Source: a virus. From it: a stretch of 64,000 nucleotides of DNA. This document shows, piece by piece, positions 2,469 to 41,620 of this stretch. The translations under genes and the position numbers were made by a program. How positions within the stretch are numbered: the stretch's first letter is position 1; the number at the start of each line of letters is the position of its first letter. The stretch is from the IMG/VR virus record IMGVR_UViG_3300022916_000005; one strand, 5' to 3'. Under the pieces are notes generated by a model, which saw nothing but the letters and a program-made list of their open reading frames with translations, had not been told where the DNA came from and did not search any database.

Positions 2469-4028
2469 ATGAAACTATATTCAAGAGAAGAAGAGTTAAA
2501 GGCATCCTTGATTAAGGGTGCAGAACAAATTGCAAGCATTGTATCAAGCACTTTGGGTCCAAATGGTTGTCCTGTCATTTTAAAAGCAAAGGGAGAAAAA
2601 CCTTTAATTACGAAAGATGGAGTAACTGTTGCAAGATTTACAACATACGAAGACCCTTTTGAGAATGTCGCTGCATCAATCATCAAACAAGCATCAGAAG
2701 AAACAAATACCACTTGTGGAGATGGAACAACAACTACAACAATCTTGGCTAGTGCTATCTTTAAAGAGTCACAAAAATATATCTCTCTTGGTATTTCTCC
2801 TTACAAGTTAAAGAGGGAGATTGATGTAGTTGTAGAAAAGATCGTTACTCAAATTGCAGAACTTGCAAAACCAATTGGTTCATTAAAAGAGATTCGAGAT
2901 ATTGCAAGGATTTCTGCAAACAACGATTCAAAGATTGGAGATCTTGTTGCAGATGCTATCGATCAGATCGGTAGAGATGGAGCAATCACTATTGAAGAGG
3001 CCAGATCATTAGAGACAACGCTAGAGATTGCTGAAGGGTATAGATTCGATTCAGGATATGTTGCAAAAGATTTTATTACAGACACAAAGAATGGCTTGGC
3101 AAAGTTAGACAATCCTTACATTCTTGTCACTGATGAATCAATTGACAACATCAAATCAATTGCAAAGATTTTAGAGACTGTTGCAAGAGATGAATCGTCA
3201 ATTGTTCTTATTGCAAACGATTTTGGGAAAGAAGTGTTGTCAACATTATTGATTAACCATATTCGAGGAACAATCAAGAATGTAGCAATTAAGGCTCCAA
3301 GATACGGAGAAGAAAGAAGAGCAATTCTAGAAGATATTGCATTGGCAACTGGTTCAACGTTTATTAACAAATTGGCAGGACTTAAAGTATCTGCCGTAGA
3401 GTTGAAGGATCTTGGAAGGGCAAAATCTATTGAGATTTCAAGTACAGAAACGATCATTGCCGAAGCTAATGGAGAACAAGGAAAGATCGAAGAACAGGTA
3501 GAGAAGTTAAAGTCATTGATTAAGCAGACAAATAATATGAAGGAAGCAGAGCGGATTCAAGACAGAATTAATCAATTGTCTGCTGCTGTTGGGATCATCA
3601 AGGTAGGTGGTAGAACTGAAGTAGAAGTGACAGAGAAGAAATTTAGAATTGAAGATGCCTTAGAAGCTGCAAAATCTGCCATCGAAGAAGGAATTGTCCC
3701 TGGTGGTGGTACAACATATTTAAGAGCGATTTTAGACATTAATGACCATTCCGATGTAGAGTATGGATACAAAATTGTTTACAATGCAGTAATGGAACCG
3801 CTGAAGATCATGGCTGCAAGAACAAAAGACACATCAGAAAGACAAATTTTTAACAAGTTGACCAACGATGACACGAGCGGATATGACTTTGCAAATGAAG
3901 AATTTGTAGATGACATGTTTGAAATTGGAATTGTGGATCCTGCAAAAGTATTGAAATATGCATTAAGAAATGCAGCAAGTGCAGCAACTACATTACTCAT
4001 TACAAATCATGCCGCGATAGAAGAATAA
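2469..4028 (+). CDS. groEL: Chaperonin GroEL (phage-encoded, no GGM tail)
   Basis: TLGPNG, ITKDGVTVA, GDGTTT, EEGIVPGGG, GIVDPAKV motifs; 519 aa. Confidence 0.96.
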   Translation: MKLYSREEELKASLIKGAEQIASIVSSTLGPNGCPVILKAKGEKPLITKDGVTVARFTTYEDPFENVAASIIKQASEETNTTCGDGTTTTTILASAIFKESQKYISLGISPYKLKREIDVVVEKIVTQIAELAKPIGSLKEIRDIARISANNDSKIGDLVADAIDQIGRDGAITIEEARSLETTLEIAEGYRFDSGYVAKDFITDTKNGLAKLDNPYILVTDESIDNIKSIAKILETVARDESSIVLIANDFGKEVLSTLLINHIRGTIKNVAIKAPRYGEERRAILEDIALATGSTFINKLAGLKVSAVELKDLGRAKSIEISSTETIIAEANGEQGKIEEQVEKLKSLIKQTNNMKEAERIQDRINQLSAAVGIIKVGGRTEVEVTEKKFRIEDALEAAKSAIEEGIVPGGGTTYLRAILDINDHSDVEYGYKIVYNAVMEPLKIMAARTKDTSERQIFNKLTNDDTSGYDFANEEFVDDMFEIGIVDPAKVLKYALRNAASAATTLLITNHAAIEE

Positions 4029-34216: not shown

Positions 34217-35034
34217 GCTTTGTAATTTTATGGTAATTTTTTCCCCCTTGACTTGACGGTCAAGCCGTGGTATGATGTAGCATAACCAGTTGAGAACAGG
34301 TGAGGTTATAATATGGCGTTTTATTTTATCTTTGGATGCTTTTTTGCTTTGATTGCAGGGATCATGTATCTTGTCAAGACCGACGAGGACACACCAACGA
34401 AGGCATTGACACTTTTTATTATGTTTCTGTGTTTACCATTTGCTTGGCCTATTGTTAGTTTAATCCTTATTCTGATTAGGGTAGTAGACTACTTTAAAAA
34501 TCGATAATTTTTTCTCCTTGACTGCCACGTCATCCTGTGGTACTATAGGGCATGAGGTTGAGGAATTGAGTCAAGGTTTGGAGGAAAGAGAATGAAGTTC
34601 AAATGTAACAAGTGTAAGAGAACCTTGACCGTGAAATCGGACAACATCTTTGAAGACGAGGAAACAGTTTTCTTTGTCGAACCTTGCGAGTGTGTTGAAG
34701 ATCGAGTAGACGAAGCCTTTGAGGATGGGAATCTTTCTGCGTTTTTGTGATTAAATTTTCTCCTTGACTGCCACGTCATCCTGTGGTACTATAGGGCATG
34801 AGGTTGGGGATGAAGGGTCATTCTTGGATAAGGTTGAGACAAAGGAGTTAATGATGTTTGTACTTCAAAATAGGCAAGATGGTCTTTACCTTGCACAGAA
34901 TTATTGTGGTTGGACCGAAGACCTCAATTGTGCCAAGATTTTCGATACTGTCAAAGATGCAGGACTAAGGCGTGGAGAGGATTTTACCCTTGAGATCTTT
35001 TCTGTCAAGATCGAGAAGGTCAAGCAAGTCGGTT

Positions 35035-35310
35035 AAACTTTTTCGTTGACAGGGCCTTCGGGCTGTGGTACGATGTGCTTGTCCTGGTGAGGGAAGGCCG
35101 TTGAAACGACGAAAACTTTTTCGTTGACAGGGCCTTCGGGCTGTGGTACGATGTACTTGTCCTGGTGAGGGAAGGTCGTTGAAACGATGAAAACTTTCTC
35201 CTTGACAGGGCGGTAGGTTCGTGGTACTATGTTCTTGGAAGTTAGGGGCCGTCAAAGAGGCGGTTGATTTTTCCCCTTGACAAGCGGCCCTGTTTGATGT
35301 AGAATGGGTC
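35035..35310 (+). promoter_or_regulatory. Four tandem sigma70 promoters (78/78/75-bp period) with no intervening genes
   Basis: TTGACA at 35046, 35124, 35202, 35277 with -10 TACGAT, TACGAT, TACTAT, TAGAAT; the first two units are near-identical 78-mers. Confidence 0.85.
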
Positions 35311-35377
35311 ATGAAGTTGGTGGAGCGGGTGCTTTGCCGACACGAAATGTTCGTTTAGGTTCTTTGGAGGTTCTGTT

Positions 35378-35863
35378 ATGACGTTTACTGGTTTTGATTC
35401 GGTCAAGGCGTTTCGTGAGGCTCACACCACTGCCGAGGGTACTTTCTTCAATAAGGAGGATTTCGCCGCTCGCAAGGTTGCGCTCGGTCGCAAGGTTTTT
35501 GCGGATCGGTTCTTCATGTCGAGCGTTCCTGTTGATGTGTCGCGAGAAGAGGCGGGTGGGAATCGTCTGTTTACCCTGCTTTTCATCGAGGATGACCTTT
35601 CGGTGACTGTCCTCGGTACGCCCGATGGCCTGGAGAGTCGCTATAAGGCGAACAAGGGCAAGGATCTGGCGATTAAGGCGTTCTCGAAGGATGGCACGCT
35701 GGATCGCTTCGTCGAGACGGATGCGGATTCCGACCTTGACGTGGAGGTCGAGCTTGAGGCGGATTCCACCGATGGCGAGCCTGTCGAGATTCTCGACGCT
35801 GACGATGCTATCTCGGAGTTCTCGGATGAGGTCGCGGAGCAGATCACCAATCTGAACGGTTAG
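35378..35863 (+). CDS. Probably highly expressed early protein with acidic C-terminal tail
   Basis: GGAGG RBS, GC-rich codons, D/E-rich last ~50 aa, stacked promoters upstream. Confidence 0.75.
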   Translation: MTFTGFDSVKAFREAHTTAEGTFFNKEDFAARKVALGRKVFADRFFMSSVPVDVSREEAGGNRLFTLLFIEDDLSVTVLGTPDGLESRYKANKGKDLAIKAFSKDGTLDRFVETDADSDLDVEVELEADSTDGEPVEILDADDAISEFSDEVAEQITNLNG

Positions 35864-35868
35864 TATCT

Positions 35869-36308
35869 GACCTGGGCATTGTCGCTAAACTGCCCATCAT
35901 CGACTGTTGACCTGCATTATTATTTAGGGGTTAGATTGTGGACAGTCTTGGTTTAGTTTAGACCTCAAACAAGTCTCAAAACTGTTTGAAATTGTTTGTA
36001 GTATCAATTTGTGTCGTGGTTATAAAGGTTGACGAAAAATGCATTGTTCACTATGTAATAGATAGACCTAAGTAAGTCCTCTTAAACTACTTCGTCCATG
36101 TGACGTTAAATGGGTCAAGAGCCCCATTGGTTATTACGGTCAAAGATCTCCGATCAACAATCTTCACTCTATTGACCTTTCGCGCTTTTGATAAAGGCAT
36201 TAATAATTACTAGGCTTAGGTAGGATTATGGAACCATTTCGTTAGCTACTGCAAGTTTAATTTTAATTTTGAGATGCTGATTATGCCTGGGCAAGCTTTA
36301 ACTGCCCA
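35869..36308 (+). ncRNA. Four compact H-type pseudoknots (35869-35896, 35960-35989, 36065-36092, 36285-36308)
   Basis: Consensus GAC-C-T-stem2-(A/TT)-GTC-Nn-AAAC-stem2'; stem 2 covaries (TGGGCA/TGCCCA, TCAAACA/TGTTTGA, AAGTA/TACTT). Confidence 0.7.
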
Positions 36309-36315
36309 TTTTTAT

Positions 36316-36391
36316 TGCTGGTTAGGGAAATGCCACATCCCGCCTGGGGCAACATTTCAGGAGATAGCTGGTTGGATTCCAGCACCAGCAA
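36316..36391 (+). ncRNA. tRNA-like RNA with non-canonical anticodon arm
   Basis: TGCTGGT/ACCAGCA acceptor, GGGA/TCCC D-stem, GCTGG-TTGGATT-CCAGC T-arm, CCTGG-GGCAACATT-TCAGG anticodon arm with 9-nt loop. Confidence 0.7.
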
Positions 36392-36895
36392 CTTCATTCA
36401 TATTGGGTATTTTTTGCTTTTGGGGTTCAATTCCCCTTTGGCTCGTGGAGAGCCAGTCTGAACCTAGAATGACAAGTGATAATATAGAGTTGGCCGCTCG
36501 AAGAACTGCATAATGTCTAGAAGCAGTTTACCGATATTTCTTTTCCCTTGACAGTGGGACGATCTTGTGTTACCATAGTGCATGAGGTTGAGGAAATAAC
36601 GAAGGAGAAAGGAAATGGAACTTAAAATAGGTTCGGTCATATGCTATAGATTTTCGGGCAGAAAATCTACAGGTGTCATCGTCGGGAAATCTCGTAAGAA
36701 GTTCTATATTGAGTGGAAGATCTTAAATGATCAGATCGTTTTATTCCCAGATAAGCCTAAAACTTTCTCCATTGGATTCCTGCAAAACAACGTAAATGTG
36801 ACAAAACTTTTCCCTTGACTCCCAGCCCGATTTGGGTTATGATGTACTTGTCCTGGTGAGGGAAGCAACAAAAACTGAGTGATCGAGGTAACATT

Positions 36896-37213
36896 ATGAG
36901 CGCAGACCGAATTCTCCTTGACAAGTGCCGCGATATGTTCAACGACATTCTTGAGGATCCTTTTGATACTGAAGATGGTATGCGAGACCTTCGAAACGAG
37001 ATCGATCTCTATTTGGAGATGACCGCCAACGTCATTGAGCTTGGCGATACTGTCATCTTCGGGACAAAGACGGGAGAGAAGACAAAGGGAAAGGTTGTCA
37101 AGATCAATCAGAAGACCTACAATCTGGAGCTTCTTGAGATTCGCGGCAAGAACGGTCGTTATCCGATTGGCACACCTTGGCGCGTAGCCAAGGCCATGTG
37201 CGAGAAGTGCTAG
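36896..37213 (+). CDS. Hypothetical SH3-like protein (paralog of 38199)
   Basis: GEKTKGKVVKINQKT...ELLEIRGKNGRYPIG shared with 38199. Confidence 0.7.
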   Translation: MSADRILLDKCRDMFNDILEDPFDTEDGMRDLRNEIDLYLEMTANVIELGDTVIFGTKTGEKTKGKVVKINQKTYNLELLEIRGKNGRYPIGTPWRVAKAMCEKC

Positions 37214-37230
37214 AGAGGAAGTAAAAACAA

Positions 37231-37649
37231 TACCCTTGGTGAGATGCCCAAGTTCGTATTGTAGATAAGATACCAACTAGAATAGATGATGATGACTTTA
37301 GTTGGAACCATTCATCACGGCTCTTATAGAAGAATAGATTAAAATCCTGTCTATCGACCATTTGGTTGATTGTGTGATGTTGCCCCAAAGGCCAAGAGTA
37401 ATCCTTGAATCACATGAAACTACACCAAATCGTCACGAGTAAAGGTTATCTTTGAATCGGGGTAAGGTTGTCAAGCGCGCTTTGTATTGTTATGAAGCAG
37501 TTTCGTAAGTGACAACCCGTTGTTAGGCGTGTTTGGGGCCATAACAGCAGAGAAGGAAAGATCATCTATTATACTCTATAGTGGGATGATCAGTTTAAAG
37601 GCGATGTGGGGGCCATTTAAGCAAATTTGATACTATGTAGGGGATATAA
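37231..37649 (+). ncRNA. Candidate ~420-nt structured ncRNA preceding the tRNA cluster
   Basis: No + strand ORF. Nested stems CCAACTAG/TTAGTTGG, CATCAC/GTGATG, GCCCCAAA(37382)/TTTGGGGC(37532), GGTTGTCA/TGACAACC, GATCATC/GATGATC. Confidence 0.55.
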
Positions 37650-37734
37650 GGCGCAGTGGTGGAAATGGAAATACACGAGAGACTCAAAATCTCTTGCCTT
37701 TAGCGGATTGAGAGTTCAAGTCTCTCCTGCGTCA
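37650..37734 (+). tRNA. tRNA-Leu(CAA)
   Basis: AGAGA-CTCAAAA-TCTCT anticodon arm, long variable arm, GAGAG-TTCAAGT-CTCTC. Confidence 0.92.
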
Positions 37735-37748
37735 CTATTGACAATTAT

Positions 37749-37835
37749 GGCCCGTTGGTGGAATTTTGGTATACGCAGTGGTCTTAGAAACCACCGGAGA
37801 AATCCATGAAGGTTCGATCCCTTCACGGGCCACCA
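37749..37835 (+). tRNA. tRNA-Leu(TAG)
   Basis: GTGGT-CTTAGAA-ACCAC anticodon arm, long variable arm, encoded CCA. Confidence 0.93.
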
Positions 37836-37842
37836 TTTTTGT

Positions 37843-37915
37843 TCTTCCTTAGCTCAGTTGGCTAGAGCGCAGGACTCTGAATCCTGATAGGTTGATTCAA
37901 ATTCAACAGGAAGAT
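37843..37915 (+). tRNA. tRNA-Gln(CTG)
   Basis: TCTTCCT/AGGAAGA acceptor, CAGGA-CTCTGAA-TCCTG anticodon arm. Confidence 0.88.
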
Positions 37916-37924
37916 CTATTTTTA

Positions 37925-38000
37925 TGCCTGTTCAAGTTCATTAGGCTGAACGCTAGACTGTGAATCTAGAGGTAGTTGATTCGATTTCAACGGCAGGTAC
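37925..38000 (+). tRNA. tRNA-His(GTG), atypical acceptor stem
   Basis: CTAGA-CTGTGAA-TCTAG anticodon arm, GTTGA-TTCGATT-TCAAC; G-U-rich acceptor, no encoded G-1. Confidence 0.75.
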
Positions 38001-38010
38001 TTTAATTTAT

Positions 38011-38082
38011 CAGAACATGATGTAATTGGGAACATCTCACGTCTGGATCGTGATTTTTTAGGTTCGAGTCCTAATGTTCTGA
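38011..38082 (+). tRNA. tRNA-Pro(TGG) with C at position 33
   Basis: CAGAACA/TGTTCTG acceptor, TCACG-TCTGGAT-CGTGA anticodon arm, TTAGG-TTCGAGT-CCTAA. Confidence 0.82.
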
Positions 38083-38198
38083 CTTGGAAGGTAGTTCAAA
38101 ACTTGTTTGTCTCGCCAATTCTTTTCCCTTGACTTGTGGACTGCCTTGTGATACTATAGGGCATGAGGTTGAGGGATTGAACGAGTTTGGAGAATAAG

Positions 38199-38534
38199 AT
38201 GACTAACGAAATGGCTTTGATGATTCGAGCAACTGGATTGCTTGACGCTCTTTGTGAAAGACCTGCCGAAGCCAATCACATGATGGAAATTATCAAATCT
38301 CTCAAAGAGGAGATTGATATCTACATCGGGATGATGGCCAAAACCATTAATGTCGGAGATATCGTTCGCTTCGGAACAGAGAATGGGGAAAAGACAAGAG
38401 CCAAAGTTCTCAAGATTAACGTCAAAACGTTCAGAGTCGAACTACTTGAGAAGCGCGGTAAGAATGGTCGTTATCCTATTGGCGACATTTGGAATGCCAG
38501 AAAGGAAGGTTGTGTCAAGATTGGCAATAAATGA
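38199..38534 (+). CDS. Hypothetical SH3-like protein (paralog of 36896)
   Basis: Shared C-terminal ~55 aa; promoter at 38129. Confidence 0.7.
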   Translation: MTNEMALMIRATGLLDALCERPAEANHMMEIIKSLKEEIDIYIGMMAKTINVGDIVRFGTENGEKTRAKVLKINVKTFRVELLEKRGKNGRYPIGDIWNARKEGCVKIGNK

Positions 38535-40492: not shown

Positions 40493-41620
40493 ATGGGTAT
40501 GTTAGACGATAAGCGACTAAAGTTGATGATTGATCTGAAGGATATTGAATCCAAGGCAATCGATCAGATCGAAAACATCTTGAAGATGGACTTTATCGTC
40601 AAGCTCGCCATTATGCCCGACGTTCACATGGGTTACACCTTACCAATTGGAGGTGTGGCTTTGACGAAAGATGTTATCTCTCCTGTTTTCGTAGGATATG
40701 ACATTGGGTGCGGAATGTGCCTTGTCGAGACCAACATTAAGGCATCAAAGTGGAATCAGGGAAAGAAAGAGAGAATCTACAAGGCAATCTGTGAGGCAAT
40801 TCCTGTCGGAAAAACGTCTCACGAGGATTCCCAGGATTATGTAGATTTTGTCTCGGAATCCAAGAACAAAAACCTTGACAAGAAGGTCAATAGTCGTCTT
40901 AAGATTCAGCTAGGAACGTTAGGATCGGGAAACCACTTCATCGAGTTAGGCGAGAACAAAGAAGGAAAGATTTGTATCACCATTCATTCAGGTTCTAGGA
41001 ACATCGGACATTCTATTGCAACCTACTACATGAACATCAAACAGGACGGGCTAGACAAGGGATTCTTGCATCTTGATTCTGTAGAAGGTCGTCAGTATGC
41101 CGCAGACCTTCTATTCGCTCAGAACTACGCATTAGACAATCGTAAGCACATGATGAAGGCTGTCCTTGAGATCCTTAATGTTAAAGATGTTGATGGTGCG
41201 ATAAAGGGGATGATCAATGAAAACCACAACCATGCCATTGTTCTTGATGGTGGACTTGTTTTGCATAGGAAGGGAGCGACTCCGGCAGACAAAGGTCAGT
41301 TAGGTGTAATTCCTGCCAACATGCGAGATGGCGTGTATGTGACGAAAGGTCTTGGCAACGATGAGTATCTTAACTCTGCCTCTCACGGATGCGGGCGAAC
41401 GATGGGGAGAAATGATGCAAAGAGAAACCTTGATGTAGATGTCTTTAAGAAGGGCATGAAGGGAATTGTTGCAAGCGTTGATAAGTCGTCTTTGGATGAA
41501 GCCCCGATGGCATACAAGGATGCAAATTTTGTCATTGATGCTCAGAAGGGTATTGCGGTAGATGTCATCGATCATATCAAGACCCTTATCGTTGTGAAAG
41601 GTACGTCAAGACCTTTATAA
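40493..41620 (+). CDS. rtcB: RtcB 3'-phosphate/5'-OH RNA ligase
   Basis: MPDVHMG, VGYDIGCG, LGTLGSGNHFIE, HSGSR, HNH, HRKGAT, SASHGCGR, DEAPMAYK. Confidence 0.95.
   Translation: MGMLDDKRLKLMIDLKDIESKAIDQIENILKMDFIVKLAIMPDVHMGYTLPIGGVALTKDVISPVFVGYDIGCGMCLVETNIKASKWNQGKKERIYKAICEAIPVGKTSHEDSQDYVDFVSESKNKNLDKKVNSRLKIQLGTLGSGNHFIELGENKEGKICITIHSGSRNIGHSIATYYMNIKQDGLDKGFLHLDSVEGRQYAADLLFAQNYALDNRKHMMKAVLEILNVKDVDGAIKGMINENHNHAIVLDGGLVLHRKGATPADKGQLGVIPANMRDGVYVTKGLGNDEYLNSASHGCGRTMGRNDAKRNLDVDVFKKGMKGIVASVDKSSLDEAPMAYKDANFVIDAQKGIAVDVIDHIKTLIVVKGTSRPL

Follow-up and report, generated by a model that had tools for sequence, protein, structure and literature searches.

A widespread 27-nucleotide RNA pseudoknot of phages and bacteria that resembles the coremin motif of eukaryotic RNA viruses

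What are the four small, similar elements that follow one another in a mostly non-coding stretch of a phage genome behind an exceptionally strong set of promoters, and what might they do there? The initial annotation of this locus had described them as an array of covarying mini-pseudoknots of a family that it did not recognise, and had proposed three functions: RNA decoys against host defence proteins, nuclease-blocking or processing signals, and a ligand-binding motif. The stretch of DNA analysed here (hereafter the window) comprises 64,000 nucleotides of a large uncultured phage from the IMG/VR record IMGVR_UViG_3300022916_000005. It has a GC content of 36% and carries every long ORF on the + strand, amongst them the genes for GroEL (2469-4028), RtcB (40493-41620) and a phosphoesterase, as well as nine tRNAs predicted by ARAGORN. 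Searches of INPHARED with blastn and tblastn retrieved no close relative of the window phage. The best matches of its GroEL and RtcB, at ~40% identity, belong to phages of many phyla, and the relatives of RtcB (35-56% identity) contain no copies of the knot motif. A promoter-leader probe retrieved four contigs, all of them unrelated.

The surroundings of the array are richer in GC, look like an early region and contain numerous sigma-70-type promoters. Between 34000 and 42000 the GC content rises to 42-45%, compared with 33-38% across most of the window, and the same region holds the RtcB gene and six of the nine tRNAs. The promoter stack upstream of the array (Table 1) reaches scan scores of 10-11 out of 12 and contains repeat families D2 and D3, the three tandem 78-nt units occupying 35035-35268; it would drive transcription into the 161-amino-acid ORF and on into the array. 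A dispersed promoter family whose conserved leader terminates in a GAGG-rich ribosome-binding stretch recurs at 34503, 34749, 36533, 38114, 30823, 32866 and 42070, and a small inverted repeat in promoter spacers is falsely picked up by a pseudoknot descriptor. The 161-amino-acid protein belongs to no PHROG or PADLOC family and has no relative in IMG/VR. Its C-terminal half is very acidic and its gene lies behind the strongest promoters of the window; a role as a DNA-mimic protein that acts early against the host is conceivable. The ~750 nt that separate this ORF from the next promoter, at 36548, contain no credible ORF.

Table 1. Features of the array and its surroundings (window positions).
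Feature	Position	Strand	Description
Promoter stack	35035-35305	+	Four sigma-70-like promoters: three 78-nt tandem units and one near-consensus
Acidic 161-aa ORF	35378-35863	+	From the ORF list
E1	35869-35896	+	Stem 1 GAC/GUC; loop 1 C; stem 2 UGGGCA/UGCCCA; 2-nt loop 2; near-canonical
E2	35961-35989	+	Stem 1 GAC/GUC; 7-bp stem 2 of other sequence, fully paired; 7-nt loop 3
E3	36065-36093	+	Stem 1 GAC/GUC; 5-bp stem 2 of a third sequence; 9-nt loop 3
E3b (possible short-loop relative)	36094-36131	+	3-bp hairpin GUC/GAC with 5-nt loop; spacer from GUUAAA; then 4-5 bp hairpin
E4	36284-36308	+	Stem 2 as in E1; stem 1 of just 2 bp; shorter loop 3 ending AAC
tRNA-like RNA	36316-36392	+	Cloverleaf; anticodon arm of 7 bp with 5-nt loop; ARAGORN Val-AAC

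The four elements E1 to E4 lie on the strand of every gene in the window and run from stem 1 through a single C (loop 1) into stem 2, then through a short loop into stem 1' and through an A-rich loop into stem 2'. Three distinct stem 2 sequences occur, each of which pairs. We scanned both strands of the whole window, with filters off, using R1, a covariance model derived from alignment A2, which comprises 145 distinct copies from other genomes and contains no window sequence. Ranks one to four were taken by E1 (28.8 bits, E = 2.7e-5), E4 (19.2 bits, E = 0.008), E2 (15.4 bits, E = 0.08) and E3 (13.5 bits, E = 0.24), while the next-best matches in the window remained below 9 bits. E1 and E4 are thus significant alone under R1, and E2 and E3 are marginal when taken alone. 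R1 leaves the pairing of stem 1 unscored, so that the stem 1 of E2 constitutes extra support, and both E2 and E3 (the latter with a 2-nt loop 1) are also matched by the pseudoknot descriptor, which in its full form gives ~8 matches per 1.5 Mb of shuffled sequence, or ~0.3 per window. A loose sequence-only pattern found three matches in the window against 1.7 expected, which is not significant alone. Taken together, the analysis confirms E1 to E4 as true copies of a widespread, uncatalogued ~27-nt phage RNA fold, at the positions and with the pairings originally drawn for them: stem 1, the C of loop 1, the AAAC-type loop 3 and a stem 2 that changes but keeps pairing. Two small corrections apply: E3 requires either a loop 1 of 2 nt or a mismatched top pair, and E4 is a weakened copy. 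Loop 3 of E1 measures 7 nt and ends in AAAC; the AAA, C and U are present in E1 to E3 with G as the next base, and E4 is followed by a U-run. As annotated, E1 begins 5 nt past the stop codon of 35378-35863, and 7 nt separate the end of E4 from the tRNA-like RNA. The spacings between the elements are 92, 104 and ~220 nt. E2 and E3 are preceded by mini-ORFs of fewer than 10 codons only and by no credible ORF, and a search for structured RNAs in the spacers between the elements found none (z-scores near 0).

Members of the family measure ~27 nt and combine stems of 3 bp (stem 1) and 6 bp (stem 2) with a loop 1 that is a single C and a 7-nt loop that ends in AAAC. Stem 2 ranges from 5 to 7 bp, begins with U and ends with A, as it does in E1, E2 and E4. 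A scan of IMG/VR with the stem 2 sequence of E1 and E4 and a free gap of 8-14 nt retrieved the family from at least 120 contigs, the gap being exactly 8 in 94 of 122 among the matches listed. A G and two stem 1 pairs that the search had left unspecified were present in 87 of the 90 unique seed matches with gap 8, where 3.5% would be expected by chance, and the pairs occurred in 18 combinations. When stem 2 was left free and only stem 1 together with short conserved strings was required, 24 of 80 non-seed candidates paired at six of six positions and 17 of 80 at five of six; block shuffles put through the same procedure gave no case of the former and ~1 of 28 of the latter. Compensatory changes are found at four of the six stem 2 pairs among variants, and U.G wobbles fall on the gene strand, where the opposite strand would have A.C. 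Both stems covary, and they do so in tests that did not demand pairing. Within alignment A2 the junction pair of stem 1 is C-G in 145 of 145 copies and the outer pairs are of 4-6 types; the invariant positions are this closing C-G, the C of loop 1, the AAA, the C and the U that follows.

The initial annotation had proposed a search of Rfam as a check. Scanning 34800-38300 against Rfam 15 with E values up to 10 yielded five true tRNAs and nothing on the elements, and 18 motif-bearing bacterial loci (at gathering score) and one leader likewise gave no Rfam match. We found no report of the motif in phages in the literature, nor anything relevant on exonuclease-resistant RNAs of phages, and it is not singled out in two 2026 genome-language-model preprints or in a paper on 10,006 csRNAs. 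The family is absent from Rfam, and the elements were correctly described at the outset as covarying H-type pseudoknots of an unrecognised family.

The exact consensus is found in 113 contigs of species-representative bacterial genomes, compared with ~4 expected by chance, and these include Chloroflexota, Desulfobacterota, Omnitrophota, Planctomycetota, Cyanobacteria, Firmicutes, Actinobacteria, Bacteroidota, Alphaproteobacteria and Saccharibacteria; Gammaproteobacteria are nearly absent amongst them. The knot is also present in cultured phages of Firmicutes, Actinobacteria and Cyanobacteria; the carriers are Moorella MTATph1, Nostoc NMeng1, Corynebacterium phi673 and phi674, Synechococcus S-EIVl (seven copies), Lactobacillus phiEF-1.1, Geobacillus D6E, Cellulosimicrobium DS1 and a microvirus. 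Amongst the IMG/VR copies listed, 58 of 118 start 5-12 nt after the stop codon of a same-strand ORF of at least 60 codons, with a mode of 6-8 nt, and just one of the 118 starts closer than 5 nt; six of the copies listed precede tRNAs, at 4-12 nt or 45 nt. Downstream of the knots lies a ribosome-binding site with a start codon at 10-60 nt, a tRNA at 4-12 nt, or a promoter. In S-EIVl, five of the seven knots begin 6-12 nt past a stop codon and end 20-26 nt before the next start. Genes upstream of the listed IMG/VR copies are enriched for Hsp20 (eight cases) and for major head protein families. The first 8 nt after the knot are G-poor (5-13%), part of which is avoidance of an extension of stem 2 into loop 1. 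Promoter-like sites are slightly commoner downstream than upstream of the motif, a difference that is not decisive.

Some loci deviate from the single-copy pattern. Three to six knots occur within a few kb in L197 (a Bacteroidota MAG contig), L137, L050, L113 and L133. Most copies in L137 use a different, compensated stem 2 (UGAGCA/UGCUCA), which suggests that copies spread within a genome. In a group of Dehalococcoidia/SAR202 loci (L153, L160, L201, L220, L227, L228 and L239) the knot is flanked by a conserved G-rich structured stretch on its 5' side and a conserved segment on its 3' side, and it may there be one domain of a larger RNA; L153 and L160 gave no Rfam match at gathering score.

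The closest counterpart of the knot is coremin (xrRNA-C), which together with its Watson-Crick variant xrRNA-WCC is found in beny-, cucumo- and many other eukaryotic RNA viruses (PMC6546385, PMC10520033, PMC10321173). In coremin, a spacer of 10 nt separates a 3-bp hairpin (GUC/GAC, capped by a YGAD loop) from a second hairpin, and the motif stalls Xrn1. Mutagenesis showed that its loop-closing C-G pair cannot be swapped while the other two pairs are exchangeable as long as they remain paired, that the first loop base must be C or U, and that the first spacer bases are tolerant while the following AAA, C, U and A are essential (PMC6546385). In a later model, coremin forms an H-type knot through pairing of its loop with the nucleotides that immediately follow AAAC; a Watson-Crick variant was found and stimulation of -1 frameshifting was shown (PMC10321173). 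Searches that covered RNA viruses only described loops of 5-8 nt, repeats, and intergenic as well as stop-codon-adjacent copies, and scanning ribosomes were blocked (PMC10520033). The phage knot matches this picture in several respects. Both have a 3-bp first helix, most often GUC/GAC, with a fixed closing C-G and covarying other pairs; both have a single pyrimidine (C) as loop 1 and three tolerant spacer bases followed by AAA, C and U; and in both the loop pairs with the bases just after the spacer. Both often lie just past a stop codon or between genes, and both are sometimes repeated. The invariant columns of A2 are the positions essential for the stalling of Xrn1 by coremin, its covarying stem 1 pairs and the first three bases of loop 3, which vary, are the tolerant ones, and the commonest phage variant shares 14 non-loop bases with the coremin 20-mer.

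The phage knot also differs from coremin. Its stem 2 has 5-7 Watson-Crick pairs, whereas coremin has 2-3 partly non-canonical ones, and one unpaired base separates stem 2 from stem 1' in the phage knot. The phage loop has 8 nt (the C, six stem 2 bases and one free base) with U as its second base, and departs from both YGAD and YGNNAD; the base after AAA-C-U is G rather than the A of coremin. The second hairpin of at least 4 bp, which coremin requires for resistance to Xrn1, is absent from the phage family: the 30 nt downstream of the knots fold no better (-2.6 kcal/mol) than shuffles (-2.0 kcal/mol), 54% of the copies have no hairpin there, and amongst the E elements only E3b precedes one. The hosts of the phage knot are moreover bacteria, which lack Xrn1. 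Since two defining features of coremin, the loop rule and the second hairpin, fail, we file the family as a new variant of the coremin design and not as a member of coremin; judging by sequence, the knot appears to be a Watson-Crick relative of that motif with a long stem 2. Its loop-3 adenosines probably dock in the groove of stem 1, and the single C of loop 1 would cross the groove of stem 2.

Two further RNAs accompany the four elements. E3b, a possible relative, directly adjoins E3; in its pattern match at 36094-36110 every specified base (13 of 13) agrees with the commonest variant of the family, and the pattern had no match in 100 shuffles. All 22 matches in the other fetched loci are of the long-loop kind, which leaves E3b as the sole short-loop match. 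It has no canonical stem 2, carries A as the second loop base and lacks the C and U after AAA. Its two-hairpin layout is that of plant-virus coremin and comes closest to the classical layout of anything seen in phage DNA here. The tRNA-like RNA is not matched by the Rfam tRNA model even at E = 10 and has a fold z-score of -1.9; another piece just after it, at 36393-36480, contains a perfect T-arm-like hairpin. The arrangement of E4 and 36316-36392 recurs in Nostoc phage NMeng1, where a knot lies 6 nt before an annotated pseudo-tRNA (GAC).

From the fold, its family, its positions and its sequence likeness to coremin we infer, with a probability of about one half, that the knot works in cis, as a mechanical roadblock placed at gene boundaries in the transcripts of the phage itself. 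Processive enzymes that travel along the RNA would be halted there, and there are three candidates for them: a 5'-to-3' exonuclease or another 5'-end-dependent decay activity that has traversed the upstream cistron, 3'-to-5' exonucleases that enter where the RNA has been cut a short way downstream, for instance by RNase P at a tRNA, and ribosomes running past the stop codon. Each RNA segment beside a knot would then have a decay and a translation of its own, and the four or five copies in the window would punctuate and stabilise the transcript of a strongly promoted early gene ahead of the tRNA-like RNA. We favour such a roadblock because of the placement of the family at gene ends and before tRNAs, its enrichment behind highly expressed genes and the precedent of coremin, and the nuclease-blocking or processing role proposed at the outset is accordingly the best supported of the three functions. 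The position data fit protection of either the upstream or the downstream RNA, in either direction. Counting against a roadblock is the absence of the second hairpin that coremin needs to resist Xrn1, and placement at gene ends fails to explain the array itself, because neither E2 nor E3 has a credible ORF before it and the intervening spacers lack structure. A specific link to RNase J is unsupported, since full-length RNase J occurs in just 21 of 30 motif-bearing bacterial genomes, compared with 8 of 14 controls over the cut-off, and is missing in the motif-bearing cases from Omnitrophota, Bacteroidota and Planctomycetota.

The main rival is a translational role linked to the stop codon, on account of a spacing that resembles that of frameshifters. 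The knot might abut the mRNA entry channel of the terminating ribosome and control its next step, be it by blocking post-termination sliding or re-initiation, by insulating or coupling the next cistron, or by promoting recoding. The distance of 5-12 nt after stop codons seen in the listed IMG/VR copies is that of frameshift and read-through stimulators, and in six of the seven S-EIVl copies the distance to the following start codon is 20-28 nt. Coremin itself stimulates -1 frameshifting and blocks scanning ribosomes (PMC10321173, PMC10520033). Against this stand the copies that precede tRNAs or promoters and those that, like E2 to E4, follow no ORF; many copies come after tandem or multi-frame stops, which argues against read-through, no slippery heptamer was seen, and compact phage genomes have short spacers anyway. 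We therefore regard a translational device as possible but unlikely.

The bacterial copies bear on this question as well. In about 45 of 118, the knot covers the final codons of a small conserved ORF that is ~25 codons long, with an N-terminal part like MKRFMVPRVA, an HCxEGC (HCxxGC-type) motif and an end in SWA with or without two further residues. The SWA end is encoded by the knot itself, and the stop codon falls either in loop 3 or in loop 2/stem 1'. Genes for Rrf2 regulators, ribonucleotide reductases and redoxins lie downstream of these copies, which are found at L141, L143, L145 (6919-7006), L155, L188, L191 and ~40 other loci in Omnitrophota, Desulfobacterota, Planctomycetota and Clostridia. 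The peptide matches no Pfam or NCBIfam family, and stem 1 still covaries in these copies. A gene for Rrf2 may begin 7-10 nt after such a small ORF without a visible Shine-Dalgarno sequence, which would suit a translational device. As the small ORF ends inside the knot, ribosomes must regularly melt the knot in this setting; this counts against a roadblock and is a constraint for any final mechanism.

Two readings assign the array a role as a source of stable RNA. In the more far-reaching one, phages and bacteria possess their own exonuclease- and ribosome-resistant knot of the coremin design, and the array yields stable non-coding RNAs that jam or divert host RNA decay early in infection, as a counterpart of sfRNA; we consider this rather improbable. 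Flavivirus sfRNA and BNYVV ncRNA3 act as sponges or decoys for Xrn1, and the other reading has nuclease-resistant RNAs from the array working in trans in the same manner, on a host RNase or an RNA-targeting defence. The four to five copies within ~450 nt that lack an ORF, behind the strongest promoter stack of the window, would fit such a sponge, and coremin viruses do make RNAs of this kind, some with repeated motifs (PMC6546385, PMC10520033). Elsewhere, however, the family occurs mostly as single intergenic copies, which fits a role in cis, and the spacers of the array have no conserved structure, which makes action in trans doubtful.

A small ligand-binding aptamer or self-cleaving ribozyme, with the invariant bases forming a pocket or active site at the stem junction, is less probable again. 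The invariant bases do cluster at the helical junction, as those of the preQ1-I aptamer do, some bacterial copies lie in the 5' leaders of redox genes, and the spread across unrelated phages resembles that of small ribozymes. The phage copies, however, control no consistent class of genes, have no expression platform and number several per genome, and tertiary contacts of the coremin type explain the same invariant bases. The ligand-binding motif of the initial annotation fits poorly with neighbouring genes as heterogeneous as these. An unusual transcription terminator or attenuator behind highly expressed genes would account for copies that follow capsid genes, at times with a promoter directly after, and for the U-run behind E4. 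At least five U within the 8 nt after stem 2 are found in 27 of the 117 copies listed (23%), yet three quarters of the copies have no U-tract, those that lie 4-12 nt before tRNAs or before promoterless cistrons must be read through, and a terminator has no need of a conserved stem 1 and loop; we consider it quite unlikely. Farthest from the evidence, and with hardly any probability left, is the proposal that the elements are decoys mimicking type III antitoxins (ToxI) and neutralising a host ToxN-family toxin: ToxI units are likewise small pseudoknots in several copies, and phage phiTE reportedly carries a pseudo-ToxI, but ToxI consists of tandem, near-identical repeats of 34-45 nt beside a toxin gene whose product cuts them, whereas the copies here are neither tandem nor near-identical, are spaced at 92-220 nt, have no ToxN-like or other defence protein in neighbouring ORFs (PADLOC) and no match to ToxI in Rfam, and belong to a family scattered singly behind many unrelated genes, at gene ends in hundreds of unrelated phages and in bacterial leaders. 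The repeat architecture and the neighbours already largely refute a ToxI mimic.

To our knowledge, all exoribonuclease-resistant RNAs described so far come from eukaryotic viruses. If the knot does act as a roadblock, one minimal RNA design would be common to DNA phages, bacterial leaders and eukaryotic RNA viruses, and phages would have a general rule for dividing long polycistronic transcripts into units of separate lifetimes. It would also offer bacterial engineering a very small, portable part for stabilising or insulating RNA. As the family is missing from Rfam, annotation ignores hundreds to thousands of copies.

Beyond coremin, two known systems invite comparison. The frameshift knots of luteoviruses and enamoviruses (BWYV, PEMV-1 and ScYLV) share with the phage knot a position 5-9 nt downstream of the ribosomal A-site codon. 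Like the phage knot, they are compact H-type pseudoknots whose loop 1 contains a C and whose A-rich loop lies in the minor groove of stem 1, and coremin has been compared with them before (PMC10321173). Their stem lengths are reversed, with 5 + 3 bp there and 3 + 6 bp here, and the phage knot comes after stop codons and is also found at sites that adjoin no ORF. The second system, MALAT1/MEN-beta, has another fold, a U-A.U triple helix, and is eukaryotic, so that the likeness is one of arrangement only: there, a protective A-rich structure is followed after a few bases by an RNase P substrate, as E4 is by the tRNA-like RNA and six other copies are by tRNAs at 4-45 nt.
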